A stretch of 63,293 nucleotides of DNA from assembly GCA_964354985.1 (NCBI GenBank), contig CAYHBR010000004.1:1-63293 (forward strand). The letters run 5' to 3'. The stretch is from an uncultured Candidatus Saccharibacteria bacterium. Lineage in GTDB: Bacteria > Patescibacteriota > Minisyncoccia > Phycocordibacterales > UBA9973. Positions 4,635 through 59,987 of the stretch are shown in pieces. The notes below the pieces were generated by a model. That model made no database searches. It was not told the DNA's origin and saw nothing but the letters and a program-made list of their open reading frames with translations. The position numbers were made by a program, and so were the translations under genes. Position 1 is the first letter of the stretch. Each line of letters starts with the position of its first letter.

Positions 4635-5693
4635 ATGGCAAAAAAAGTAAAAGAACCAAAAGCACACGGCGGAGCAGTCGAAGACGCAATCAAGTCCATC
4701 CTAACCAAATTTGGTGAAGGCTCTATTATGAAGCTCGGAGACGCACCGAAGGTCGCGATAAATGCTATCCCGACTGGCTCGATTGGTCTTGATATCGCTC
4801 TTGGTGTCGGAGGACTACCACGAGGACGCATCGTTGAAATATTTGGACCAGAGTCATCTGGAAAGACTACTCTCGCCCTGCACGTCGTCGCCGAAGCCCA
4901 AAAGCTCGGTGGTGTATGTGCCTATATAGACGCAGAACACGCAATGGATCCTGAATACGCACAAAACCTAGGCGTAAATATCGCAGAATTACTTATCTCC
5001 CAACCAGACACAGGCGAACAAGGCCTTGAAATAGTTGAGTCACTTGTCCGAACTTGTAAAATAGATGTCATCGTTATCGACTCCGTCGCCGCACTTACTC
5101 CAAAAGACGAAATCGAAGGCGATATGGGACAACAACATATGGGTAAACAAGCTCGCCTTATGTCCCAAGCTCTCCGCAAACTTACGGCTATTGTTGCCAA
5201 GTCAAACACTGTTGTTATTTTCATCAACCAGATCCGTATGCAGATCGGTGTGATGTTCGGCAACCCAGAAACCACTCCAGGAGGAAAAGCATTAAAGTTT
5301 TATACTTCTGTGCGACTCGACATACGTCGCATTGCTCAGATTAAAAAAGGTGAAGAAGTTGTTGGCTCACGCACTCGCGTCAAAGTTGTCAAAAACAAGG
5401 TTGCCGCGCCGTTTAAACAAACTGAGTTCGACATAATATACGGCGAAGGTATTTCGCTCGAAGGTGAAATAATGGCTCTTGGTGAAAAGCTCGGCATAAT
5501 CGAAAAAAGTGGTGCTTCTTACACTTACCTTCCACCAGACGAGAAAGACAAGAAAGCCGAGAAAATCCCCCTCGCTCGCGGTTATGACGCAACGCGTCAA
5601 GCACTTCGCGAAAATCCAAAACTCCGCGACCAGATTTTGAAAGTAATAAAAAAGCGAATGAAAGAAGTTGTTTCCGAGAGTAGTGGTGAATAA
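4635..5693 (+). CDS. recA: recombinase RecA
   Basis: [11 protein letters not shown], Walker [10 protein letters not shown] and IDSVAAL are textbook RecA motifs. Confidence 0.97.
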
Positions 5694-6281: not shown

Positions 6282-6827
6282 ATGTTATTTACAAAAATAA
6301 AAAGCGAAATGAGCCCATCGTTCATTAGAGTGTTTGGTAATTATTTTGAACACACAATCAAGCCAGACTACGGAACAATGCTCCGTATGCAAGACTATGA
6401 GACAATTTATACGAAAAACCGTAGTAGTCTCAGGTGGGAGCCGGGACGACACAAATTGTTCGAATTTGGTCCCTATTCTTATCCAAGATGTTCATGCATT
6501 ATTGATTCTTTCAAAAATCATACAGAAAGAAGGAAATACTGCATTAGTATTATAGAGAAAGAATCAGGAAATACCCCTATTCTTGAATACTCAAAGAATA
6601 AACTCTTTCACGAAAGAATTGAGGCGTCTATTAGATACTCAATGTTATTTTTAAGTGATGTTGAGAATATCAAACCACTACTTAATAAGGCATTATTAAG
6701 TTACGATATTGATAACAATGGTAGAATTGATTTCTACCAGAAAAGTAATCAGCAACGTATCATGGTCGCTGAGGCTATCAATCTTTTATCATTAGCTATC
6801 ATCGAACACGAACTTACACAGTTCTAA
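6282..6827 (+). CDS. hypothetical protein
   Basis: 181-aa ORF followed by a strong terminator. No recognisable family. Confidence 0.45.
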   Translation: MLFTKIKSEMSPSFIRVFGNYFEHTIKPDYGTMLRMQDYETIYTKNRSSLRWEPGRHKLFEFGPYSYPRCSCIIDSFKNHTERRKYCISIIEKESGNTPILEYSKNKLFHERIEASIRYSMLFLSDVENIKPLLNKALLSYDIDNNGRIDFYQKSNQQRIMVAEAINLLSLAIIEHELTQF

Positions 6828-6857
6828 TTTAGAATTTGTGTAAGTGAGATCTTCAAA

Positions 6858-6887
6858 GCCCCCGGTTTTTTTGGGGGCATTTTTATT
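6858..6887 (+). terminator. intrinsic terminator
   Basis: gccccc-ggttttttt-gggggc followed by atttttattt. Confidence 0.8.
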
Positions 6888-6965
6888 TGCCATAGTGCCC
6901 GACTTTCGCTATACTCTGCGGAGTTAGCCCACGGGCTATTTTTATTCGTAACAAGACCCAGATCT

Positions 6966-46312: not shown

Positions 46313-47296
46313 CTACATTAAACTATCAATAAGTGCATCGAGACCTGCGTTGAAATTATCTTGATTTGCATGACACTGAATAACTACTGGTTCAGTTGGA
46401 CCACCGTACACACCGCAACTTTGATACAAAAGAGAAAAGGTTGTTGTCTTTGTACCACTTCCATTTGCTGTGGTATATGTATAAGTAAAACCATAGCCAC
46501 CTGCGTAGCCATCACCGCCCTTACTAACACAATAAGTTCTTGTACCAATCACTCTTTGAGATGCAACCGTTGGCGTATCACCTCCCGTGCTTCCTGTTGC
46601 GCAAGAAAATGCCGTCAATGAATTCTGGATTATTGGAGGCCATGAATTAAATGCTGTACCAATGTATTGCGGTAGTGTGGTTGAAATTGGTGGATGAGGA
46701 ACAACGTTTATAGTAAATAATCCGTTTGAGTAGTCATACGGACCGTATCCCGAACCAACATGAGTTGCGTCACCTGTGCCCATAATAGTAAGGAAGTAAT
46801 GCTGACCAGGTGTTAGGTTTGTATTGGAACTTGGGGGCAAAGTAATGACCTCGCTTCCATCATCCGCCAAACCAACATAAGGGTTTATCCCACCAAGAGT
46901 AAATCCAGAATAATCACCTTCTATTTGACTCTGTGTGTATGGGGTATTGCCTGTGCGCTTTACAAGGGCAACACCGATTGTATTAGGGTCGATGTTGCAA
47001 CCCTTCCATTTAACCGTAATTTGTTGTCCTGCTTGGTATACTTCGCCACCATTTGGGGAAATCAACCGAATGGTTGTTGGGGAGTTAGCATTACAAGCAG
47101 TTTGCTGTGGCTGATTTTGATTAGAATTATTTTGTGTGGTATTTGTATTCGTAGCTTGTGTATTTTGATCCTGATTAATCAAGGAATTACTTTTGTTATT
47201 CTTCCCAACAAAATACGCACCTGCTCCAACCACCAAAACCGCAACGATTATTAAAATCACGGCAATAGGAGAAAAGCCCTTATTATATTTATTCAT
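46313..47296 (-). CDS. membrane-anchored secreted protein with a Q/N/T-rich linker and an SPNGGE-type domain (paralogue of 58845..59987)
   Basis: MNKYNKGFSPIAVILIIVAVLVVGAGAYF anchor, a low-complexity QNTQATNTNTTQNNSNQNQPQQ linker, then IRLISPNGGEVYQAGQQITVKWKGCN. Confidence 0.6.
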   Translation of the reverse strand: MNKYNKGFSPIAVILIIVAVLVVGAGAYFVGKNNKSNSLINQDQNTQATNTNTTQNNSNQNQPQQTACNANSPTTIRLISPNGGEVYQAGQQITVKWKGCNIDPNTIGVALVKRTGNTPYTQSQIEGDYSGFTLGGINPYVGLADDGSEVITLPPSSNTNLTPGQHYFLTIMGTGDATHVGSGYGPYDYSNGLFTINVVPHPPISTTLPQYIGTAFNSWPPIIQNSLTAFSCATGSTGGDTPTVASQRVIGTRTYCVSKGGDGYAGGYGFTYTYTTANGSGTKTTTFSLLYQSCGVYGGPTEPVVIQCHANQDNFNAGLDALIDSLM

Positions 47297-49760: not shown

Positions 49761-50243
49761 ATGATAAACAAAGACCTATTAGACTATGTCCGCTCAGAAA
49801 AAGAACGTGGCATCCCAAAAGATACTATAAAGAAAATGCTTCTTGAAAGTGGTTGGCAGGAAAAAGATATTGTTGATGCAGAACAAATAGTTTATGCAAT
49901 AAATATTGCGCCTGCTCCAGTGAGGCCTATCGAAAAAATACAACCTGTTAATATCCAACCAACAAATATTCTTGGTGCAATAAAAACCTACGGACAAACA
50001 ACAAGCCAACCGAGCTTAAACCAATCTGGCTTAAATCAAACAAAATTAGATTTGCCCGACATAACCGAGCCTACGAACATCGTTCCCCAAAAAATCACCG
50101 GAGTGCAACCCATTCCAATACTGCAGGTACAACCACACAAGTCTTATGCAAAAATCGGACTAACTATTATCGTAGTTATGCTTGTTTTATTACTCGGAGT
50201 AGCTGCTTATGCATATTATAGTGGGTACTTTGCGCCTTTTTAA
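49761..50243 (+). CDS. hypothetical protein: short N-terminal helical module, linker, C-terminal TM
   Basis: LLDYVRSEKERGIPKDTIKKMLLESGWQEKDIVDA resembles the N-terminus of 56353..57897. C-terminal TM is IGLTIIVVMLVLLLGVAAYAYY. Confidence 0.5.
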   Translation: MINKDLLDYVRSEKERGIPKDTIKKMLLESGWQEKDIVDAEQIVYAINIAPAPVRPIEKIQPVNIQPTNILGAIKTYGQTTSQPSLNQSGLNQTKLDLPDITEPTNIVPQKITGVQPIPILQVQPHKSYAKIGLTIIVVMLVLLLGVAAYAYYSGYFAPF

Positions 50244-50336: not shown

Positions 50337-51005
50337 ATGAGAATATTAATAATAGAAGATGACAAAGAGATAAGAACAGCACTTGCTTCACATCTCGAAT
50401 CTGTGTGTTTTGCAGTTGATACCACCGGAGACGGAGCAGATGGATCTTTTTTAGCAAGGACAAATGACTACGACGTGGTAGTCCTTGACTACATACTTCC
50501 AAATAAAGATGGCCTGCGTATTTGTCACGAAATTCGTGAAAGTGGTAAGAATATGCCAATTATTTTAACTTCTGTAAGAAATGAAATATGCGACAAAGTT
50601 GAGTTATTAAACTCTGGCGCTGACGACTACGTCACAAAACCTTATTCCCTAGACGAAATACTGGCTCGTATTAATGCAATGATTCGGAGACCTAAAAAAG
50701 TCGATTCACCGCTTATGTATATTTCAAATATTACGATAGACGCAAATAAACAAAAAGTAACAAAAGGTAATAGAGAAATTTATCTTACCAGAAAAGAATA
50801 TTCACTACTTGAATATCTGGCTCGTAACGAAGGGCGAGTAGTCACGAGAGGAACTATTATGGAACATGTTTGGAATATGGAAAGTGACCCTTTTTCAAAC
50901 ACAATAGAGGCTCATGTTTTCAACTTGAGAAAAAAGATTAGGGGTGGTAAAAATGAACTTATTCGAACAATACCTGGTCGTGGATATATGCTAGAGACAA
51001 AATAG
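50337..51005 (+). CDS. OmpR/PhoB-family response regulator
   Basis: MRILIIEDD, VVVLDYILP (phosphoacceptor Asp), a conserved Lys in DDYVTKP, and a winged-helix output domain (TRKEYSLLEYLARNEGRVVTR...IRTIPGRGY). Confidence 0.93.
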   Translation: MRILIIEDDKEIRTALASHLESVCFAVDTTGDGADGSFLARTNDYDVVVLDYILPNKDGLRICHEIRESGKNMPIILTSVRNEICDKVELLNSGADDYVTKPYSLDEILARINAMIRRPKKVDSPLMYISNITIDANKQKVTKGNREIYLTRKEYSLLEYLARNEGRVVTRGTIMEHVWNMESDPFSNTIEAHVFNLRKKIRGGKNELIRTIPGRGYMLETK

Positions 51006-51063
51006 TTTGTAATATTTATAATAAAATAATTTTTATTTTATAAAAAATTTATGAGGACTTAAT

Positions 51064-51135
51064 ATGGCTTTGAGATACTTTTCTTGGAGCAGCCACCATG
51101 TTGGTCGAGGTAGTGCTTCGTTAAAAATAATTTAA
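51064..51135 (+). CDS. candidate small ORF 1 (23 aa)
   Basis: ATG preceded by GAGGA with a 6-nt spacer. Sequence MALRYFSWSSHHVGRGSASLKII*. It shares the 14-nt start context ttaatATGgcttt with sORF2. Confidence 0.35.
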   Translation: MALRYFSWSSHHVGRGSASLKII

Positions 51136-51142
51136 GATTAAT

Positions 51143-51250
51143 ATGGCTTTAATCATAGAGAAAATGCTCAACAGCAAGGAATCAAGATCCGAAAAAGAAG
51201 TTCGGAATCTTTCGGTAAATGCCGGAGAGTTTGAGCCCTGGTGGAGTTAG
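51143..51250 (+). CDS. candidate small ORF 2 (35 aa), possible signalling-peptide/RiPP precursor
   Basis: MALIIEKMLNSKESRSEKEVRNLSVNAGEFEPWWS*. It has a charged leader-like N-terminus and a Trp-Trp near the C-terminus. It ends 30 nt before the kinase ATG. Confidence 0.4.
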   Translation: MALIIEKMLNSKESRSEKEVRNLSVNAGEFEPWWS

Positions 51251-51279
51251 TCAGAAAAAAAAATATACGAAAAGAAATA

Positions 51280-52842
51280 ATGAGCACTAGAAAACTGAGC
51301 ACAAAATTACTCGTCACAACCTGCCAAGGGTGGTACAGAAATTGTGCTCATTATTTCTATGTTGCACTTCTTAAACCAATATCAGAGAGCGAAGACAATA
51401 ACAGAGGAGAACGGATACTTACGCTCATTTTGCTTTTTATCTTTACCCTGACTGCAATACTAGGAACTGGACTCATTATTCAAAAGATTAGTCTAGGGAA
51501 CAACTACCATGGTGTACCAATTTTATTATTTACTATAATTCTCACATTCTACGCTATTCTAATTTTAATTTCGCGTAAAGGTTACTATCGCACTGCAGGA
51601 TACATATTTATATTAGTATTTTTTACGATAACCTTTTACGGCAGTATTCAGTGGGGAGCAAGTATGCCTATGGGTCTTCTCGCTTATGGATTAGTCGTTA
51701 CTATGGCAAGTATAATAATCAGCAGTCAATTTGGCTTTATTGTCGCAATTTTTTCTTGCTTTGCAATTTTAGGTGTCGGACTAAACGAATCTAGCGCAGG
51801 AGCGCTTCCTACATGGAAACTTGAGGCAATAGAGAAGAAAGATGTCTTTGGCTATATCGTAATGATTTTTCTCACTGCGCTTCTCTCCCGAATATCTAAC
51901 AAAGAAATGGAGAAGTCGCTTGTAAGAGCACGCATATCCGAGCAAGCGCTTAAAGAAGAGCGAGACAACCTCGAAATAATTGTCGAAGTGAGGACCAAGG
52001 CTTTGCGCGAATCCGAAAGAGAACGCCTGCGAGAACTTTATAGATTTGCAGAATTTGGCAAACTCTCTGGTGGTATTTTCCATGACCTACTCAGCCCACT
52101 TACAGCTGTATCACTTTCTGTTGCTAATCTGGACAGACAAAACAGACTACGCAAAGAAAATAAACTTAATATTGAAAATAAGTTAAATAGTGGAATGGAA
52201 CAAGACGACGGGAGTAGATTTAATAATGAAAATGAAATAACAACTGATGGGTCAGAAGTTACTGAGTCTATCAAAACTGCCGTCGCAGCAACCAAACGAA
52301 TGGAGCAATTTATGCTTACTATTCGAAAACAAATAAAATCAGATAATCAAAAATACCTATTCTCTTTCAACGAAGAAATAGAAGACGCTATCGAGCTCGT
52401 TCGTTTTCGTGCCCAAAAAGCAAATGTCTCTGTCCATTTTGAAGCAACAGAAAATATCCAGATTTTCGGGAATCCACTCAAGTGCAACCAAGTGATAACC
52501 AACCTCATCAATAATGCTATCGACGCTTATGGAACTAATGGAAATGGGGCAATTTTTATCGAACTCAAAAAACTTACGGAGAAAATAACTTGTAGCTTTT
52601 CAGACAATGCTCTCGGTATACCACCTGAAATTATGGCAAAGATATTCACTCCTTTTTTCACAACCAAGGAAAGCGGTATCGGCCTTGGTCTCTCAACAAG
52701 TAAGGACATCATTGAAGAAAATTTCGGCGGGATTATTTTATATGAAAGCATTCTTGGCAAAGGAACGACTTTTACAATTAGCTTACCTCTGCAAATACAT
52801 GAACCTAAAACTGAAAAACAGCATAACCAAATGTCTACTTGA
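51280..52842 (+). CDS. sensor histidine kinase with ~6 N-terminal transmembrane helices
   Basis: H-box FGKLSGGIFHDLLSPLTAV, N-box NLINNAIDAY and G-box GIGLGLS. The membrane-embedded sensor has no large external domain. ATG at 51280 is preferred over the GTG at 51241, which overlaps sORF2. Confidence 0.9.
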   Translation: MSTRKLSTKLLVTTCQGWYRNCAHYFYVALLKPISESEDNNRGERILTLILLFIFTLTAILGTGLIIQKISLGNNYHGVPILLFTIILTFYAILILISRKGYYRTAGYIFILVFFTITFYGSIQWGASMPMGLLAYGLVVTMASIIISSQFGFIVAIFSCFAILGVGLNESSAGALPTWKLEAIEKKDVFGYIVMIFLTALLSRISNKEMEKSLVRARISEQALKEERDNLEIIVEVRTKALRESERERLRELYRFAEFGKLSGGIFHDLLSPLTAVSLSVANLDRQNRLRKENKLNIENKLNSGMEQDDGSRFNNENEITTDGSEVTESIKTAVAATKRMEQFMLTIRKQIKSDNQKYLFSFNEEIEDAIELVRFRAQKANVSVHFEATENIQIFGNPLKCNQVITNLINNAIDAYGTNGNGAIFIELKKLTEKITCSFSDNALGIPPEIMAKIFTPFFTTKESGIGLGLSTSKDIIEENFGGIILYESILGKGTTFTISLPLQIHEPKTEKQHNQMST

Positions 52843-54865
52843 TGGATGGAAGTTTATTCAATCAAAACAACAACCCAACGGTAAATGGTGCGGAATATCT
52901 TTCACTAGCGATGGAAAATGGGTTGCTTCAAAAACAGCATTCACTACTTCTCTCATTCTCACCTCACTACGGCCACTTTTTGAATATCCAGTAATAGATC
53001 GAAAATCTTTAAAGCAAGTTGTGGAAAATGCTGTCGAGTACCTCATTACTGAAAGTGAGGAAAAGTATACGACTTGGAACTACTGGGAAAGAACAGAGCC
53101 AAGACGCGATAAGATTCCGGCTGACATGGATGACACATCTCTTGCATTAGCAGCTATTAAAATATGGAGTCCAAAAAAAATTGGTGGAAAGGAACTTGCT
53201 AATGTTGTGCATTCATTATTTTCCACAGAAACAACAGAAGGTGGTCCGTACAATACCTGGATTACTGATTTTAAAAATGACATGCGTTTTAATGATTGCG
53301 ATATTGCAGTTAATGCCAATATTGCTTTTATGCTTTCACTCATCGGGATAAATGTACCGAACTTAACAAAGTTATTTGAACAACAAGTAAACGATGGGTC
53401 ATTTAAATTGAAAAATATTTCCAAATACTATAAGTCACCTATTGTTACCCTTTATTTTATCGCTCGAGCATATCAAGGAGATAAGCACCAAATTTTTATA
53501 GATGAAATTTTAAAACTACGAATTACTACTGGTGACTGGGGAACGCCAATGCATACAGCTCTAGCTCTTTCGGCTCTGCACTATTTAGGCCAAGACATTA
53601 CAATCGAAACAAAAGCACTGGGTTATATAGTCGTTTCTGCACAAGGAGGTTATTTTAAAAAAGAGGCCTTCTATTTTGAAGGCGGTGACAAAATAAATAT
53701 GTGGTACCACGGCAGTGATACACTCACGACAAGTTTTTGTATTGAAGCACTGTGCTGCGCTACTGTATCCAAAACAATAAAAACAAAAGATGGTTCTGAA
53801 AAAATTTCTGATAAAATAATTAGCAACCAGGAAGTGTGCAAATTTGAGAACGAGAGCAAAACTGTTGCTCGAAATTTTCTCGGCCGATCGAAATCACTAT
53901 CTAAATATTTCGAAAAAAGTGCTAAAGTATATCTAGCAAAGGTTTATTCTCATCATTGGGTCAAAGAGAGTATTCTTATGCCATTTTTCTTTGCAGACGC
54001 TTTTACCGAAATCGGGAACCGACGTAACAAAAAACAATTTGGCTTAAACGAAGCGAGTTTACACAAACTTTCATATGCCAATTTGTGTGGATGGATAGGA
54101 TATTCAGTGCTTGATGAAATAATAGACGGCGAATCACCTGTTTCTCTTATCCCATTCGCCAATTTCTGCTTAAGAGAAATGAATACATTGTATGGGGAAA
54201 TCTTTTCTGAACAAAGCCATAAAATAATTGTGAGTATACTAGAAGAAACAGACATCGCGTACGCGGGTGAAAACACCCGCCGAATGACAAAGAAGGGTGA
54301 CTCTTTTTTACTTGAGACTTTTTTAAAAGAAGCAGTTTTGCGGAAGTCGGTTTTAGGAAAGTCGGTTGAATATACTTACGACATAAACAGTTCTAGTAAA
54401 TCGATAGGTCAATGCATAGCTGGACTTGGTGTTCTTGAGTTACTCAGTGATACTGATTTTAAAATACCCCAAATACAGCAAGCGTTCATTTTGTTTTACA
54501 GAAATTACCTTGAGGCTAAACAGGACAGCGACGACGCCGAGGACCTACTCGAAGACCTTGGGCGTGGACATATTAGTAAAGTCGGAGCTCTTACTCTTAC
54601 TGCTTTTGTAAAAAAATATCCAAGTAAAAAATTACTAAGCATAGAACAAGACAAAGATACCTTACTTGATATTTTTTGGAATGATGTTTTTCCAAATTTA
54701 TATGAAGAAATATCAATATCACTTAGGTGCTCCGAGCAAGATATTTTGAAAATTCCCCTTAATAATACCGATTATTTTCTTTCTCTTATTCGAATCGCCC
54801 AAAGTAATATCGACAAAACAAAGAGCGAGAGGAAACTGGTTCAAGATTTTCTTAAAGCTTACTGA
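52799..54865 (+). CDS. fusion protein: N-terminal terpene-cyclase/prenyltransferase-type alpha/alpha toroid (DxDDT motif) plus C-terminal polyprenyl-synthase/ComQ-like alpha-helical domain
   Basis: N-terminal half: QW-like repeats QQPNGKW, QVNDGSF and TTGDWG, and IPADMDDTSLALAAI (the class II cyclase DxDDTA-type motif). C-terminal half: YSVLDEIIDGE, then about 140 aa later YLEAKQDSDDAEDLLED, which fits the FQxxDDxxD spacing of trans-prenyl synthases. The start at ATG 52799 overlaps the kinase by 44 nt. Confidence 0.55.
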   Translation: MNLKLKNSITKCLLDGWKFIQSKQQPNGKWCGISFTSDGKWVASKTAFTTSLILTSLRPLFEYPVIDRKSLKQVVENAVEYLITESEEKYTTWNYWERTEPRRDKIPADMDDTSLALAAIKIWSPKKIGGKELANVVHSLFSTETTEGGPYNTWITDFKNDMRFNDCDIAVNANIAFMLSLIGINVPNLTKLFEQQVNDGSFKLKNISKYYKSPIVTLYFIARAYQGDKHQIFIDEILKLRITTGDWGTPMHTALALSALHYLGQDITIETKALGYIVVSAQGGYFKKEAFYFEGGDKINMWYHGSDTLTTSFCIEALCCATVSKTIKTKDGSEKISDKIISNQEVCKFENESKTVARNFLGRSKSLSKYFEKSAKVYLAKVYSHHWVKESILMPFFFADAFTEIGNRRNKKQFGLNEASLHKLSYANLCGWIGYSVLDEIIDGESPVSLIPFANFCLREMNTLYGEIFSEQSHKIIVSILEETDIAYAGENTRRMTKKGDSFLLETFLKEAVLRKSVLGKSVEYTYDINSSSKSIGQCIAGLGVLELLSDTDFKIPQIQQAFILFYRNYLEAKQDSDDAEDLLEDLGRGHISKVGALTLTAFVKKYPSKKLLSIEQDKDTLLDIFWNDVFPNLYEEISISLRCSEQDILKIPLNNTDYFLSLIRIAQSNIDKTKSERKLVQDFLKAY

Positions 54866-55934
54866 GATTTAATTTAAAATGTGCAACTAATTTTAGCCAA
54901 ATTTCTTTGTGTTTACTGGACATCTCTATTTTTTCAAGAATCACTTCTGCTTTTTTAAGATGCTCAGCAATTGCCATACGCTCACTTAGTAGTGAACCTG
55001 ACAAAGTGAATAATTCTCTCACTCGGCATATATCGTTAGTATCGAGTGGTTGACCTCGGTAAACCGAGTATACTGCCTTTTGTCCTGCTGTAGAATGATT
55101 ATCAAAATGCAAAGACAAATGCGTTGGTAAATCGGCTGTGATATCTGACCCAAGCGACTTTCCCAACACAGCTTCGCTCGCCATTAGGTCAGACAAATCA
55201 TCTAGTCTTTGAAAAGCATGGCCGAGATGGTGTCCGAGTTTTTGATAATACTCAGTCTTTGTTTCAAAAGAAACTAGCTCTGGCTGATTTTTAACTCGAG
55301 AAACAGACTTATCTTTGGATTGATATACTGGGTGCCCTTCAACAGCCAAAGCAAGTCCAAGTAACGCCGGGTATACAAAAGTGTAACGCGCAGTTTTGAG
55401 CTCAATAGATGTGCTGAGAATACTTTCAGTAATATCTCTCCGTTTAACGAGTGAGGTGTCTATCATTTGTCCAATATTGGTCTCTTCGGCTAGTTTCAAA
55501 AAGATTGTCCGGGGAACTTTGTTGGAAATGTAATCAGGAGAATCAGTGCCGTTAATACTTTGTATTGCCCAAATTAGACATTGATTGCCAGCAAGCAAAG
55601 CCTGGTTGAGACCAAAGCGCGCACTTAGTGTTTCTACGCCATGTCGTTTATTTGAATTATCTAAAATGTCATCGTGAATAAGAGCAAATAATTGGAAAAG
55701 TTCAAGAGCAAAAAGTACTGGTAATATTGACTGCTTATCTGTACTTACTTCGCTTTTATAAGCCAAATTGCATATATAAGGACGTAAGCGCTTGCCGTCT
55801 CGAGCAAGCATAATAAGTTGTTCTCCGACAATTGAAAAATCCGGATAATGCACAACAACACTATCTACGCATTTTTTTAAATAAACCAAAAACAGTGGGT
55901 CAAAATACTTTTTAAATATAATTAATTGTTCCAT
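54852..55934 (-). CDS. polyprenyl diphosphate synthase (trans-IPPS family)
   Basis: FARM is LIHDDILDNSNKRHG and SARM is GHAFQRLDDLSDL. There is a 14-nt tail-to-tail overlap with the fusion gene. ATG (MEQLI) at 55934. Confidence 0.85.
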   Translation of the reverse strand: MEQLIIFKKYFDPLFLVYLKKCVDSVVVHYPDFSIVGEQLIMLARDGKRLRPYICNLAYKSEVSTDKQSILPVLFALELFQLFALIHDDILDNSNKRHGVETLSARFGLNQALLAGNQCLIWAIQSINGTDSPDYISNKVPRTIFLKLAEETNIGQMIDTSLVKRRDITESILSTSIELKTARYTFVYPALLGLALAVEGHPVYQSKDKSVSRVKNQPELVSFETKTEYYQKLGHHLGHAFQRLDDLSDLMASEAVLGKSLGSDITADLPTHLSLHFDNHSTAGQKAVYSVYRGQPLDTNDICRVRELFTLSGSLLSERMAIAEHLKKAEVILEKIEMSSKHKEIWLKLVAHFKLNLSKL

Positions 55935-56061
55935 TCCAACACTGTACAAGGCTGAGATGAAGTAAAAATCAATTATTTATCAAGTAAAAACGAGAGGAAT
56001 TACTACTCAATATTAAACTTTATTTTGCCAATTCTTGTAGAGCCGACTTTTTATTTAAGAA

Positions 56062-56352: not shown

Positions 56353-57897
56353 TTAATTGCATTTATCACCAAGTGGCTGCTTGTTTGCTTTACCTGAAAA
56401 ACCACGGCTATCAGTACAATAATACCCAGTCGTATTGTGGGTATACAAGCTCCATGCGGTCGCCGTATCAAAACAAATAGGATTATCGAAACCTGAAGCT
56501 AATATTTTAGCTGAAATAAACGGAATAGTAAGCTCTGTCCCCGTCTCTCCTTCTACTCCAGATTTCTGACAAACCCCTTTAAATGAATTATTATTTGTTC
56601 CTTTAAAAACTCCAGCTACAGTCCTAATATCCGAGAAAAAACTTTTTAAAACTTCTGGTAAATCTGTTGCTGCATTTTTATTTTCAAGCTCAGAGTATGA
56701 GACAACAAGTGGTGGAATATTTATAGTTGGAGACAAGTCAAAATGATCATAAGAAATAGTGAACCTTACTCTTACTGGCAAAGAATATTCTTTTGTCTTA
56801 TAAGCAAAACTAATAACTGCTTTTTTTATTAAATCGTTTTGGTCGAAAGTAATTTCCCCTGTTGGTAATTCGGTAATGGCTGTAAATGTAAATTTTGAAC
56901 CGATATTTGCCGACATCTCCAATCTATCACTCATTAAAAAAATATTACTGAAATAAGTCGCAATCGAGTCGGCATACCTAACTGTAACGATAGTTTCTCC
57001 CGTTGGAAGATTTGTTGAGTTTCCAGGTATTGCATCACTAAGAAACGAAGCCAATTCACGGGCAAAGCCTTTGTCATACAAACTTGTTTTTCCAAAAAAA
57101 CCATATGCAAAGGTTGGTATGTTCATCTCGCCATCATAACGGATCCAATTTGCACCTTGGTTTGAAATAGTATTATCGAAAACAGTTGAACTCTCTGAAA
57201 GCTTTGCGTAAAAAGCATTACTGATAAGTCGACTTGTCGCACTAAAATCCATACTTTTATTACCTTGAACACTTATTTTATTCGTAAATTTAACCTCATT
57301 TTTTTTTGCCCGTGAATCAAACCAGTCGTCCACTCCTAAAAATGTGCCTTTTATTGTGGCTGGAACTTGTCTTGAGTCTATCCCGCCAAAAGTACTTACT
57401 AAAACTTTATCAGTTAAAACCATACCGGCCGGGGCAGTTATTTCATAGTCACCTGAATATTGAATTGATTTTAAATTTTCTACTACACCTACAATTCTAG
57501 AAATTTTTTTATTCGGACTATTTAAAAGTGGGCCAAGTAAGAAATATCCCCCTACTCCAAAGACAACAAGCCCAAAGACTATTAAAATAGGAATCAGTCG
57601 GTGATGCTCTGGTTTAATTTCTTTACTAAAAACTTCGGGAGTTTTTACTTCTACCACAGTCGGTTCAATTTTGAGATCAATATTTGTTGCTTCTTTTGGC
57701 AGACCGACAGCTATCGGCATTTCTATCATCGGGCTACCGGCTTTGTCTGGACTTGCTCTCTCGGCAATCATACGGAATGCTTCGGCTATTTCCATTCTCT
57801 GCCAACCAGCAGTAACGAGCGCTTCCATTATCACTCCGTGGGCTGTTCCCTTGTTGACTTCGTTTTCTATATAAGTAAGTAGTTCGTTTGTAATCAT
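56353..57897 (-). CDS. membrane-anchored extracytoplasmic hypothetical protein
   Basis: 514 aa. The N-terminal module LLTYIENEVNKGTAHGVIMEALVTAGWQRMEIAEA resembles that of 49761..50243. One TM helix (LIPILIVFGLVVFGVGGYFLL), then a large domain ending in a Cys-containing C-terminus. Confidence 0.55.
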   Translation of the reverse strand: MITNELLTYIENEVNKGTAHGVIMEALVTAGWQRMEIAEAFRMIAERASPDKAGSPMIEMPIAVGLPKEATNIDLKIEPTVVEVKTPEVFSKEIKPEHHRLIPILIVFGLVVFGVGGYFLLGPLLNSPNKKISRIVGVVENLKSIQYSGDYEITAPAGMVLTDKVLVSTFGGIDSRQVPATIKGTFLGVDDWFDSRAKKNEVKFTNKISVQGNKSMDFSATSRLISNAFYAKLSESSTVFDNTISNQGANWIRYDGEMNIPTFAYGFFGKTSLYDKGFARELASFLSDAIPGNSTNLPTGETIVTVRYADSIATYFSNIFLMSDRLEMSANIGSKFTFTAITELPTGEITFDQNDLIKKAVISFAYKTKEYSLPVRVRFTISYDHFDLSPTINIPPLVVSYSELENKNAATDLPEVLKSFFSDIRTVAGVFKGTNNNSFKGVCQKSGVEGETGTELTIPFISAKILASGFDNPICFDTATAWSLYTHNTTGYYCTDSRGFSGKANKQPLGDKCN

Positions 57898-58844: not shown

Positions 58845-59987
58845 TTAGTTAAATTTGAAAGTTTTTAGTAATTGCTCAAACTTAGCGATTTCTGCGACAT
58901 CACCATTGCCGAGGGGTGTGCTAAATTTAAAATAAAGTGAATGTGTCTGATCCTTATGCATGAAGAAAACATACATATCATGAGAAGGAATAACTGTGTG
59001 TCCCGCATGTTCGCCTCCACTGACAGTGGCAGTATTTCTCATTTCTCCCACAATCGCTGTCTGTCCTCCAACCGTTATTGTTTTTTTAGTCTGCGCAAAA
59101 ATATCTGAGGAATTATTATACCTTGAGAGTTCATCGCTGTAGACAGCACTTCCCATCGTGTAACATTCAATATGCATACTATCTTTTGGCGCATAAATCT
59201 GGTTATTGCTTCCATCGTGCGTCTCGATTCCTTGTGAAGCAGTGTCGATAAAATCAATCATTCTGCTCATGATAGTGCCTTGTAGGTTAATGGCATTTGA
59301 CTCATTGCCAGCTGACCAAGAATCTGGATATTGGAAAGTATATCCACATCCTGTATTGGTATATGTTTTCCAATTGGCAGTAGAAATTTGGGGAGCATTG
59401 ATCGTAAATTTATTATCAGAAATATCGCTTGGAATATTTGGACCCCCAACGGCAGGCCAAATAGCAACATAAAAATTATTTCCGTAATACACAGGATTAC
59501 CACTATCCCATTCACTTGCATCGTCCGTTGGAAGTGTTACAACAGCCGAACCATTATTTAATGCCGTTTTTGTTAGGACATGTTCCTCTCCGCCCATTCC
59601 GCCAGGACTTTTATATCGGACATCAATTTGTAAAAGTGTATTTGCAGACAAATTACAACTCTTCCATTTAACTGTAATTTTTTGACTAGCTGTATAAACT
59701 TCTCCACCATTCGGTGAAAGAACCGTTATTGAAGGATTACATGTTGGTGTAGGAGGAGGCGTTTGCTGTTGTGGCGGATTATTAGCAGGCGGAGGAGTTT
59801 GGGCAGGAGGATTATTATTTGTCGTCGGCGGAGTATAATTCTGTTCAGTTGTCGGAAAATAATTATCACTCACCGTATTTTTCGGAGTAGAACTTTTTCC
59901 CGCAAAGTAAGCAACTCCGCCGACCGCTAAAACTCCAAGAACTATTAGTAAAACTACGACTGGTGCAAAACCTTTATTGTATTTCAT
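58845..59987 (-). CDS. membrane-anchored secreted protein with a Pro-rich linker and an SPNGGE-type domain (paralogue of 46313..47296)
   Basis: MKYNKGFAPVVVLLIVLGVLAVGGVAYF anchor, PPTTNNNPPAQTPPPANNPPQQQTPPPTP linker, then ITVLSPNGGEVYTASQKITVKWKSCN. Confidence 0.65.
   Translation of the reverse strand: MKYNKGFAPVVVLLIVLGVLAVGGVAYFAGKSSTPKNTVSDNYFPTTEQNYTPPTTNNNPPAQTPPPANNPPQQQTPPPTPTCNPSITVLSPNGGEVYTASQKITVKWKSCNLSANTLLQIDVRYKSPGGMGGEEHVLTKTALNNGSAVVTLPTDDASEWDSGNPVYYGNNFYVAIWPAVGGPNIPSDISDNKFTINAPQISTANWKTYTNTGCGYTFQYPDSWSAGNESNAINLQGTIMSRMIDFIDTASQGIETHDGSNNQIYAPKDSMHIECYTMGSAVYSDELSRYNNSSDIFAQTKKTITVGGQTAIVGEMRNTATVSGGEHAGHTVIPSHDMYVFFMHKDQTHSLYFKFSTPLGNGDVAEIAKFEQLLKTFKFN

Follow-up and report, generated by a model that had tools for sequence, protein, structure and literature searches.

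Can a bacterium of the Candidate Phyla Radiation (CPR, Patescibacteria) make a lipid-decorated peptide of its own and sense it? CPR bacteria have very small genomes and few regulators, and to our knowledge almost no secondary metabolism or self-signalling has been described in them. The question is raised by a cassette in a stretch of 63,293 nucleotides (the window; contig CAYHBR010000004.1, assembly GCA_964354985.1) from an uncultured Candidatus Saccharibacteria bacterium, in which the genes for an OmpR-type regulator, a peptide of 35 amino acids (aa), a histidine kinase with six transmembrane (TM) helices and a fusion enzyme (~650 aa in the family) follow one another in this order. The cassette was kept in ~78 of 80 species-level relatives, mostly titled Patescibacteria/CPR. 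An arrangement that is kept across hundreds of CPR bacteria most likely serves both to produce a lipid-decorated peptide signal and to detect it, and we have moderate confidence that the four genes form a circuit for a ribosomal lipopeptide, like ComQXPA of Bacillus plus an extra chemical step. The four genes of the window and the two domains of the fusion enzyme are as follows.

50337-51005, plus strand: OmpR-family response regulator, 222 aa (Pfam Response_reg, 1e-25; Trans_reg_C, 5.5e-25).
51143-51250, plus strand: predicted precursor peptide (sORF2), 35 aa; product MALIIEKMLNSKESRSEKEVRNLSVNAGEFEPWWS, with the leader MALIIEKMLNSKESR... and the C-terminus NAGEFEPWWS.
51280-52842, plus strand: histidine kinase, 520 aa, with a 6-TM sensor (HATPase_c, 4e-23; H-box FHDLLSPL).
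52799-54865, plus strand: fusion enzyme, 688 aa; its gene overlaps the kinase gene by 44 nt and a polyprenyl synthase gene by 14 nt.
52799-53773, plus strand: N-terminal domain of the fusion enzyme (residues 1 to ~325), a class II terpene cyclase toroid with the motif D109-x-D111-D112-T113.
53834-54865, plus strand: C-terminal domain (residues 346-688), with a trans-isoprenyl-diphosphate-synthase (trans-IDS) fold, a motif resembling the first aspartate-rich motif (FARM; D439/D443) and Q575-x-x-D578-D579-x-x-D582.

A previous sequence-only reading had placed six open reading frames (ORFs) in this region. All six were reproduced at the same coordinates by an ORF list, and five of the six parts are real, the exception being an upstream small ORF (sORF1) discussed below. 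That reading had also recognized the regulator as OmpR-type, described a kinase of ~6 TM helices without an external domain, noted the 44-nt overlap between the kinase gene and the 688-aa ORF and identified a separate canonical polyprenyl diphosphate synthase; the domain matches, the six hydrophobic segments of the kinase (within residues 45-205) and the coordinates bear out each of these.

Relatives were taken from a scan of one genome per GTDB species, which yielded 216 loci encoding a relative of the fusion enzyme; the best 80 were kept. The fetched loci were chosen through the enzyme, i.e. the peptide-kinase counts cover enzyme-bearing loci only, and some locus counts are inflated by related sequences; the 11-nt periodicity within single sequences and the clade-to-clade stem changes reported below are independent of relatedness. 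Clustering of flanking ORFs in the 80 distinct loci recovered the kinase in 80, the fusion protein in 79, the regulator beside the cassette in 69 and a synthase in 17, and revealed no further universal family and no universal immunity gene. Loci lacking the regulator mostly lay at contig ends or had the regulator moved downstream. When the window proteins were used in tblastn searches, the regulator was located 0.3-0.5 kb upstream of the kinase, and in nearly all loci the end of the kinase homolog coincided with the start of the fusion gene. The peptide gene was directly 5' of the kinase gene and the kinase gene directly 5' of the fusion gene, often overlapping it, in ~78 of the 80 distinct loci, so that the suspected co-occurrence of the enzyme gene with the two-component system is upheld. 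The contigs of the three closest homologs each had the regulator, the 35-aa ORF, the kinase and a fusion gene overlapping the kinase gene, with the convergent synthase in two of the three. This linkage persists at 24-30% enzyme identity, whereas the remaining flanking genes all change. It also survives rearrangement: in four loci (L013, L019, L039 and L067) the regulator was found downstream with the parts still together, and two Saccharimonadales loci had an inverted block of kinase and peptide genes, divergent from the fusion gene (L070, peptide 1944-2051 and kinase 1843-509, both minus strand; L084, peptide 6652-6927, minus strand). This joint inversion shows that the peptide-kinase pair is the tightest linkage of the cassette.

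Taxon labels of the loci were those of the record titles. Patescibacteria/CPR titles were carried by 59 of the 80 loci and included Paceibacterota, Nomura-, Buchanan-, Doudna-, Colwell- and Moraniibacteria, Saccharibacteria, and Davies-, Shapiro-, Roizman- and Levyibacteria. Another 14 loci were titled "uncultured Gammaproteobacteria" (third-party annotation, TPA, co-assemblies). These titles are probably wrong; we regard them as unreliable because the peptide gene of at least one such locus (L072) is essentially identical to that of a Microgenomates record (L073) with the same layout. One locus each was titled Methylomirabilota (L020) and Dormiibacterota (L075).

An ORF of the same design as sORF2, 34-42 aa long, was present between the regulator and the kinase throughout the family. 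No Pfam or NCBIfam family matched sORF2. A hidden Markov model (HMM) built from 58 peptide sequences was scanned against 15,129 ORFs of 20-130 aa from all loci and the window; it gave one strong match per locus (E 7e-17 to 2e-3), always adjoining the kinase gene, and the best unrelated ORF had E 0.06. Among loci in which the region was present, only L026 had no recognizable peptide, and the copy in L037 had an unclear start. The N-terminal leader is conserved as KKILTDKxxR (hh-x-K-h-L-T-D-K-x-x-R), and among 72 distinct peptides L9 was invariant (72/72) and R15 nearly so (71/72). A Trp followed by 1-7 residues was present in all 72 peptides, was preceded by Pro in 60 and was the single Trp of the peptide in 63; the frame of sORF2 and its C-terminal Trp, on which the earlier proposal depended, are therefore kept in relatives. 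The closest orthologs, those of the window clade, end in very similar sequences (MAKIIEKILSSKEVRNEEAVRNLSLNAGEFEPWWS, ...NAGEFLPWWS, ...NEGEFEPWWS, ...EAGEFEPWWG and ...QAGELEPWWS). The region between leader and Trp is variable, being polar in the window clade and hydrophobic and Ala-rich in many others, where an AxA-like site precedes the Pro-Trp; this site is at most a hint at the position of leader cleavage.

The fusion enzyme had no match as a single sequence in Pfam or NCBIfam (at E 0.01) or among PDB sequences. Its 29 word-index homologs were all hypothetical proteins, from Parcubacteria/Paceibacteria metagenome-assembled genomes or unnamed, and a profile-seeded word-index search for the family brought no additional relatives or names. 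An exhaustive HMM scan detected 1,564 clusters (50% identity) at E <= 1e-30 and 3,778 at E <= 1e-3, and the best 150 clusters were all ~650 aa long with two domains; the family occurs in Paceibacteria, Saccharibacteria, Microgenomates and others. In the alignment of the 29 homologs (A1), the invariant groups were P-x-D-x-D-D-T in the N-terminal half and G-W-x-x-Y-x-x-x-D-x-x-x-D and Q-x-x-D-D-x-x-D-x-x-x-D in the C-terminal half. An AlphaFold model based on A1 (mean predicted local distance difference test, pLDDT, 87; predicted template modelling score, pTM, 0.77) consisted of two helical domains with a low-confidence or disordered linker at residues 325-345. The model, Foldseek and profile searches agree with the initial view of this protein as a toroid joined to a prenyl-synthase-like domain and make it a class II cyclase joined to a non-elongating trans-IDS-like domain. 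Two family members (P0019 and P0025) carry a precomputed Pfam label, PF28380, that was absent when they were scanned against a local Pfam copy; part of the fusion protein may thus already be covered by a family in a recent Pfam release.

The top Foldseek matches of the N-terminal domain in PDB were the drimenol synthase AsDMS (9mhs/9m7e, E 1e-10), a small squalene-hopene cyclase (SHC; 8pak), MstE (6sbg) and SHC 1sqc. A profile of this domain from 34 lineages matched the cyclase domain of AsDMS (E 7e-20), with PDDLDDT aligned to PDDLDTT of AsDMS. The residues D109, D111, D112 and T113 were invariant in alignments A1 and A3, and DxDDT was present in 57 of 62 distinct family proteins. A LanC-like or glycosyl-hydrolase (GH) toroid, the outcome that the sequence-only reading had named as fatal to it, is excluded by the same searches: the top 27 Foldseek matches were all class II terpene cyclases, epimerases and GH-like barrels appeared only from E 2e-3, and LanC was outside the top 50. 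MstE cyclises prenyl chains that are already on an aromatic ring (PMC13290415). With the cyclase motif intact, the predicted chemistry extends past ComX-type prenylation to cyclisation of the prenyl chain.

The C-terminal domain matched the synthases 3aqb and 5h9d in Foldseek (TMt 0.67); its profile gave noise only against PDB sequences, and no Pfam match was obtained. The QxxDDxxD motif was present in 62 of 62 family members. The FARM-like expression (Y/F)D(D/N)F(L/F)D was found in 47 of 62 listed proteins, with D439 and D443 invariant in alignments A1 and A2. When the domain was compared by hhalign with 17 neighbouring true synthases (72% probability, E 3e-5, 262 columns), FARM fell on FARM and the Gln plus second aspartate-rich motif (SARM) on FQxxDD. 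The synthase-invariant GGKxxR and KT motifs (G47, K48, R51, K180 and T181) had no conserved counterpart in the C-terminal domain. These motifs bind isopentenyl diphosphate, and in their absence chain elongation is unlikely; a chain-elongating synthase was therefore ruled out as the identity of this domain. The NSE/DTE motif of class I cyclases was non-standard as well, with His or Glu in place of Ser/Thr. Every characterised trans-IDS-like prenyltransferase (ComQ, PalQ and the P domain of ChrPC) targets Trp and has a Gln just before SARM (PMC13290415). The C-terminal domain is predicted to be a Trp prenyltransferase.

The hydrophobic segments of the kinase were at residues 45-68, 79-99, 105-123, 128-148, 151-169 and 188-205, and the loops between them were no longer than ~20 aa, leaving no extracytoplasmic domain. 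ComP, AgrC and ComD, which are receptors for peptides, are likewise polytopic. The ATG at 51280 is a conserved start (AAAGAAATAATG). In Pfam, the window kinase matched HATPase_c only, and weak HisKA matches were seen in relatives. A pherotype-like hypervariable sensor was looked for and not seen, the sensor being 50-59% identical among close relatives and the kinase core likewise. The window regulator scored under every NCBIfam equivalog cut-off and shared 71-78% identity with its positional counterparts in the five closest relatives.

The DNA between the regulator and peptide genes had been read as containing a second peptide gene, sORF1. Its features in the window are the following.

51031-51053, plus strand: candidate regulator-binding direct repeats, TTTTAT ... 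ATTTAT, in 11-nt phase, just upstream of the predicted promoter.
51064-51135, plus strand: "sORF1", a non-gene overlapping the predicted promoter and the hairpin of the 5' untranslated region (5'-UTR).
51071-51079, plus strand: predicted extended -10 promoter element, TGAGATACT; TGn(G/C)ATACT in 6 of 6 window-clade members.
51086-51119, plus strand: predicted 5'-UTR hairpin whose loop carries GGTCGA (51103-51108), 39 nt ahead of the ATG of sORF2; free energy (dG) of the window fold, -11.9.

The DNA homologous to 51040-51140 was conserved in the five closest relatives as nucleotides and not as a frame; sORF1 was open in the window only, and in L001 a stop codon follows after three codons at the homologous position. 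The blocks conserved in the window clade were TTTATC, the extended -10 and GAAGCAA...GGTCGA...TTGCTTC. The sORF1 ATG (51064) sits between TTTATC and the -10, i.e. upstream of the predicted transcription start (near 51086). No family matched sORF1, and we rejected it as a second peptide gene in favour of regulatory DNA or RNA.

Elements similar to TG-n-TATAAT were found in other clades. In 37 loci with a recognizable promoter of their own, autocorrelation of 4-mers in the 55 nt upstream of the -10 peaked at exactly 11 nt (z 15.3) and again at 22 nt (z 7.5). The phased repeats are readily seen in L018 (about 5360-5400; CCTTTACAATT CCTTTACTTTTT CTTTACC, e.g. CTTTAC three times), and 11-nt direct repeats were also present in L022, L029, L013 and L078. 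Regulators of the OmpR/PhoB family classically bind tandem repeats spaced by one helical turn. The position of such OmpR-type repeats at the peptide promoter suggests that the adjacent regulator controls the peptide operon, which would amount to autoinduction.

A sequence [GA]TCG[AGT], usually GGTCGA, occurred 22-62 nt before the peptide ATG in 40 of 72 loci (L046, L056, L058, L064, L033, L030, L043, L034 and L018 among them, at 25-56 nt), in or at the 3' side of a hairpin loop. The stems differ between clades with pairing kept (GAGCTAT/ATAGCTC, GTCCTA/TAGGAC, CAACTTG/CAAGTTG and GGCCTTTT/AAAAGGCC), and the mean perfect stem length was 4.98 versus 3.33 +/- 0.21 in 200 shuffles. Stems were assessed by a motif-anchored search with shuffles; the registers of MAFFT alignments were inconsistent. 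G-U pairs on the plus strand argue for an RNA element, and a search of the conserved upstream region against Rfam gave no meaningful match; the GGUCGA hairpin may be an undescribed cis-regulatory RNA. In the remaining loci, mostly of Microgenomates and Saccharibacteria types, the regulator stop codon was followed by a strong Shine-Dalgarno sequence and the peptide, without the hairpin.

The last of the genes in the region is the separate synthase.

54852-55934, minus strand: short-chain-type trans-polyprenyl diphosphate synthase, 360 aa (PF00348, 6.7e-37; DDILD and DDLSD).

It has FARM, SARM, GGKxxR and KT, and its best NCBIfam matches, all below cut-off, were short-chain IdsA, geranylgeranyl diphosphate (GGPP) and farnesyl diphosphate (FPP) synthases. 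Phe at -5 and Ala at -4 precede an uninterrupted DDILD, which we take to be the archaeal-type GGPP synthase pattern. The inclusion of this gene in the block stands in part: a synthase adjoins the cassette in 17 of 80 loci and is facultative rather than a core part. It was convergent and downstream in the window, L001, L005, L007, L012 and L061, co-directional and downstream in eight loci, and between the regulator and peptide genes in L017, L032 and L035. Independent recruitment in three arrangements argues for a functional link to the supply of the prenyl donor, which is the probable role of this enzyme. The 3' ends of the fusion and synthase genes overlap by 14 nt (54852-54865) in the window, and tail-to-tail overlap or abutment was also observed in L001 and L007.

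Several neighbours outside the cassette were also recorded. In a Nomurabacteria clade (L046, L056, L058, L064, L071, L078, L079 and L082), transporter-type genes lie 1-7 kb either side of the fusion gene; the flanking genes encode two ABC half-transporters, a YihY-like membrane protein, an HlyD-like protein, an MFS pump and MurG. The ABC, HlyD-like and MFS proteins are possible peptide exporters, but their linkage resembles lineage synteny and they are absent elsewhere. The window region is flanked by two paralogous predicted secreted proteins (46313-47296 and 58845-59987, both minus strand), whose N-termini, M(N)KYNKGF(S/A)P and then a hydrophobic helix, resemble a pilin-like signal and which share a ...C-N-x-x-S-x-T-(I/V)-x-L-(I/x)-SPNGGEVY-x-A-x-Q-x-ITVKWK-x-CN domain. 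The genes that border the cassette directly (49761-50243, plus strand; 56353-57897, minus strand) encode proteins with a common N-terminal domain of ~45 aa, MI(N/T)x(D/E)LLxY(V/I)...GW(Q)..., followed by a TM segment; homologs of both recurred near the cassette in a few close relatives, and no Pfam family matched them.

From the gene content, order, conservation, folds and motifs observed here, we infer a series of chemical and signalling steps. The 35-aa precursor would dock on the fusion enzyme via its conserved leader, and the C-terminal domain would transfer a C15-C20 prenyl group from a prenyl diphosphate, supplied in this genome by the convergent polyprenyl synthase, to the invariant Trp. 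The DxDDT acid of the N-terminal domain would then protonate the distal double bond, converting the peptide-bound chain into a polycyclic terpenoid. After removal of the leader and export, the short hydrophobic Trp-terpenoid peptide would partition into the membrane and be bound by the 6-TM sensor of the kinase, much as ComP senses ComX; the kinase would then phosphorylate the OmpR-type regulator. The latter would bind the 11-bp-phased repeats at the promoter of the peptide operon, closing an autoinducing loop, and presumably act on other targets too. Prenylation of Trp and cyclisation of the chain are supported by analogy with characterised enzymes, and gene linkage and promoter anatomy point to leader docking, kinase sensing and regulator feedback. 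More tentatively, and with somewhat less than even confidence, we suggest that CPR/Patescibacteria have an ancient autoinducing pheromone circuit of their own, spread through the group and built on a Trp-linked polycyclic terpenoid peptide from one fusion enzyme and a new family of 6-TM kinases, in which the regulator would control behaviour of these obligate episymbionts, such as host attachment, competence or division, and the GGUCGA hairpin would control expression of the precursor.

Some observations weigh against a circuit that makes and senses a lipopeptide. The sensor is no more divergent than the kinase core, and ComP-style pherotype diversification is therefore not evident at present sampling. 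Clustering of flanking ORFs in the 80 loci revealed no conserved protease or exporter in the cassette. For the C-terminal domain, sequence searches revealed no similarity to the ComQ family or to PDB entries, leaving the fold match and the 72% hhalign probability, and DxDDT was unrecognizable in 5 of 62 enzymes, some of which are truncated ORF calls. Finally, the hydrophobic, Ala-rich middle with an AxA-like site found in many peptides could instead be the mark of a small peptide that is exported or sits in the membrane.

The strongest competing explanation, which we consider unlikely, keeps the chemistry and changes its purpose: the prenylated, cyclised peptide would be primarily an effector, perhaps a membrane-active lipopeptide directed against hosts or competitors or serving attachment of these episymbionts, and the kinase and regulator would serve producer-side control or self-protection, as NisRK does for nisin, and not the sensing of population density. 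Lipid-bearing peptides that are made by the ribosome and modified after translation (RiPPs) are usually described as bioactive natural products, and the variability of the core region between clades fits an arms race as well as pherotypes. ABC half-transporters, an HlyD-like protein and an MFS pump also lie within a few kb in the Nomurabacteria clade; however, immunity or transporter genes are not conserved outside that clade, where synteny is likely. The universal partners of the peptide gene are instead the kinase and the regulator, the gene follows the kinase when the latter is inverted, and the very short tail after the Trp resembles ComX and not an antimicrobial peptide. Being an effector would not prevent the peptide from being a signal as well.

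Less probable still is a fusion protein that works on free prenyl diphosphates as a bifunctional terpene synthase, its product being a cyclic terpenoid lipid or hormone of the membrane; sORF2 would then be a small accessory protein that modulates the kinase, like MgrB or SafA, and the kinase would sense the membrane state or the terpenoid. Both domains are indeed terpenoid-enzyme folds, drimenol synthase, the closest sequence relative of the N-terminal domain, uses free FPP, and a polyprenyl synthase is sometimes adjacent. In addition, a hydrophobic stretch comes after a basic N-terminus in many of the peptides, as in small membrane proteins, but the polar middle of the window peptide cannot span a membrane. 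This explanation also leaves the invariant Trp, usually Pro-Trp, near the extreme C-terminus unaccounted for, whereas the characterised trans-IDS-like transferases all act on Trp (PMC13290415). The C-terminal domain itself, which lacks the GGKxxR and KT invariant in the 17 neighbouring synthases, is unlikely to elongate chains, and its version of the class I cyclase NSE/DTE motif is non-standard. That the adjacency is inherited synteny without functional coupling, the small ORF being an unrelated conserved leader peptide or upstream ORF of the kinase, is very improbable: CPR genomes are compact with many overlapping genes, but the four genes stay together at 24-30% enzyme identity while the other flanks change, are reordered without separation in the six rearranged loci described above, and have had a prenyl synthase independently inserted at three positions.

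If the lipopeptide circuit is real, ~4.5 kb of a reduced genome is spent on making and sensing a terpenoid-decorated peptide, and the cassette offers a rare genetic handle on the communication or host interaction of uncultivated CPR cells that is open to testing without cultivation. The hundreds of natural enzyme-peptide pairs would also provide material for biocatalysis of peptide lipidation.

Among known systems, ComQXPA of Bacillus, in which the genes for the prenyltransferase ComQ, the pheromone ComX, the kinase ComP and the regulator ComA are adjacent (PMC4008528), shares with the CPR cassette a block of four neighbouring genes, a small precursor whose Trp lies a few residues from its C-terminus, a polytopic kinase without an extracytoplasmic domain and a cognate regulator. 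The differences are considerable. The order is regulator-peptide-kinase-enzyme versus Q-X-P-A; the regulator has Trans_reg_C (OmpR type) and not the GerE/NarL type of ComA; the window peptide has no ComX-family match, and the enzyme no match to polyprenyl_synt PF00348 or ComQ (IPR033965); an extra, apparently active class II cyclase domain is present; and the hosts are CPR bacteria versus Firmicutes. The proposal of a ComQXPA-like block, which had itself noted that families and order differ, survives as the co-localization of analogous components; no match placed these in the ComQ/PF00348, ComX or NarL-type families. Judged by its families, the locus is an analogue of ComQXPA and not a member of it.

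The shape of the peptide, with a leader, a variable middle and a Trp near the end, is that of ComX, PalX and StheX. In PalP-PalX-PalQ of Paenibacillus alvei, a kinase, a precursor and a Trp prenyltransferase of trans-IDS fold occur together, the acceptor being a C-terminal Trp (PMC10853753). In StheX, the ComX-like substrate of StheQ in Sphaerobacter thermophilus, positions 2-3 counted from the C-terminus are WW, as in the PWWS seen here, and the Gln that lies one helical turn ahead of the (pseudo-)SARM is retained. The leader of PalX is long and of the NHLP type, and StheX measures 69 aa, whereas the leaders found here have 15-17 aa and an unrelated sequence; a cyclase domain is missing from both systems, and the SARM of the CPR enzymes is a full DDxxD versus the pseudo-SARM NDxxD. 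The N-terminal domain is homologous to AsDMS, with the acid motif aligned, and matches MstE in structure; however, AsDMS is fused to a haloacid dehalogenase (HAD) phosphatase and uses free FPP, MstE is stand-alone, and neither has a peptide or a two-component link.

A parallel to the fusion enzyme is ChrPC, in which a trans-IDS-like Trp prenyltransferase is fused to an MstE-like cyclase; it uses C10-C20 donors to prenylate the Trp of a peptide, and cyclisation of the chain follows (PMC13290415, summarising Hubrich et al. 2024, Chem 10:3224); the same article reports NctPC as a second fused Trp-prenyltransferase/cyclase RiPP maturase from 2024. The product of the ChrPC system was named "steromaze" (PMC13647313). 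Going by its description, ChrPC shares with the CPR enzyme both folds in one polypeptide and the predicted logic, and we found here the Asp-rich acid motif of the cyclase, FARM, the Gln preceding SARM and, as one per locus, an adjacent precursor-like small ORF with an invariant Trp. The domain order may differ, the cyclase being N-terminal in CPR whereas the name ChrPC suggests P then C, and the texts consulted on ChrPC mention neither an embedding with a regulator and kinase nor occurrence in CPR. Neither ComQ nor ComX nor prenylation is mentioned in a census of CPR and DPANN quorum-sensing genes from 2020, and the literature searched for Patescibacteria/CPR with ComX, prenyl, RiPP or peptide pheromone contained nothing relevant, Hubrich et al. 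2024 itself lying outside its coverage. The claim of an undescribed system therefore holds for the CPR cassette, of which no account was found in the literature searched, and not for the fused enzyme logic, reported in 2024 for ChrPC and NctPC. On its sequences and models, the cassette is best described as a predicted cyclised-prenyl RiPP maturase wired to a two-component system, with its own precursor family, sensor family and cis-elements, across CPR, and it would connect ComX-type quorum sensing with the newly found cyclised-prenyl RiPPs.

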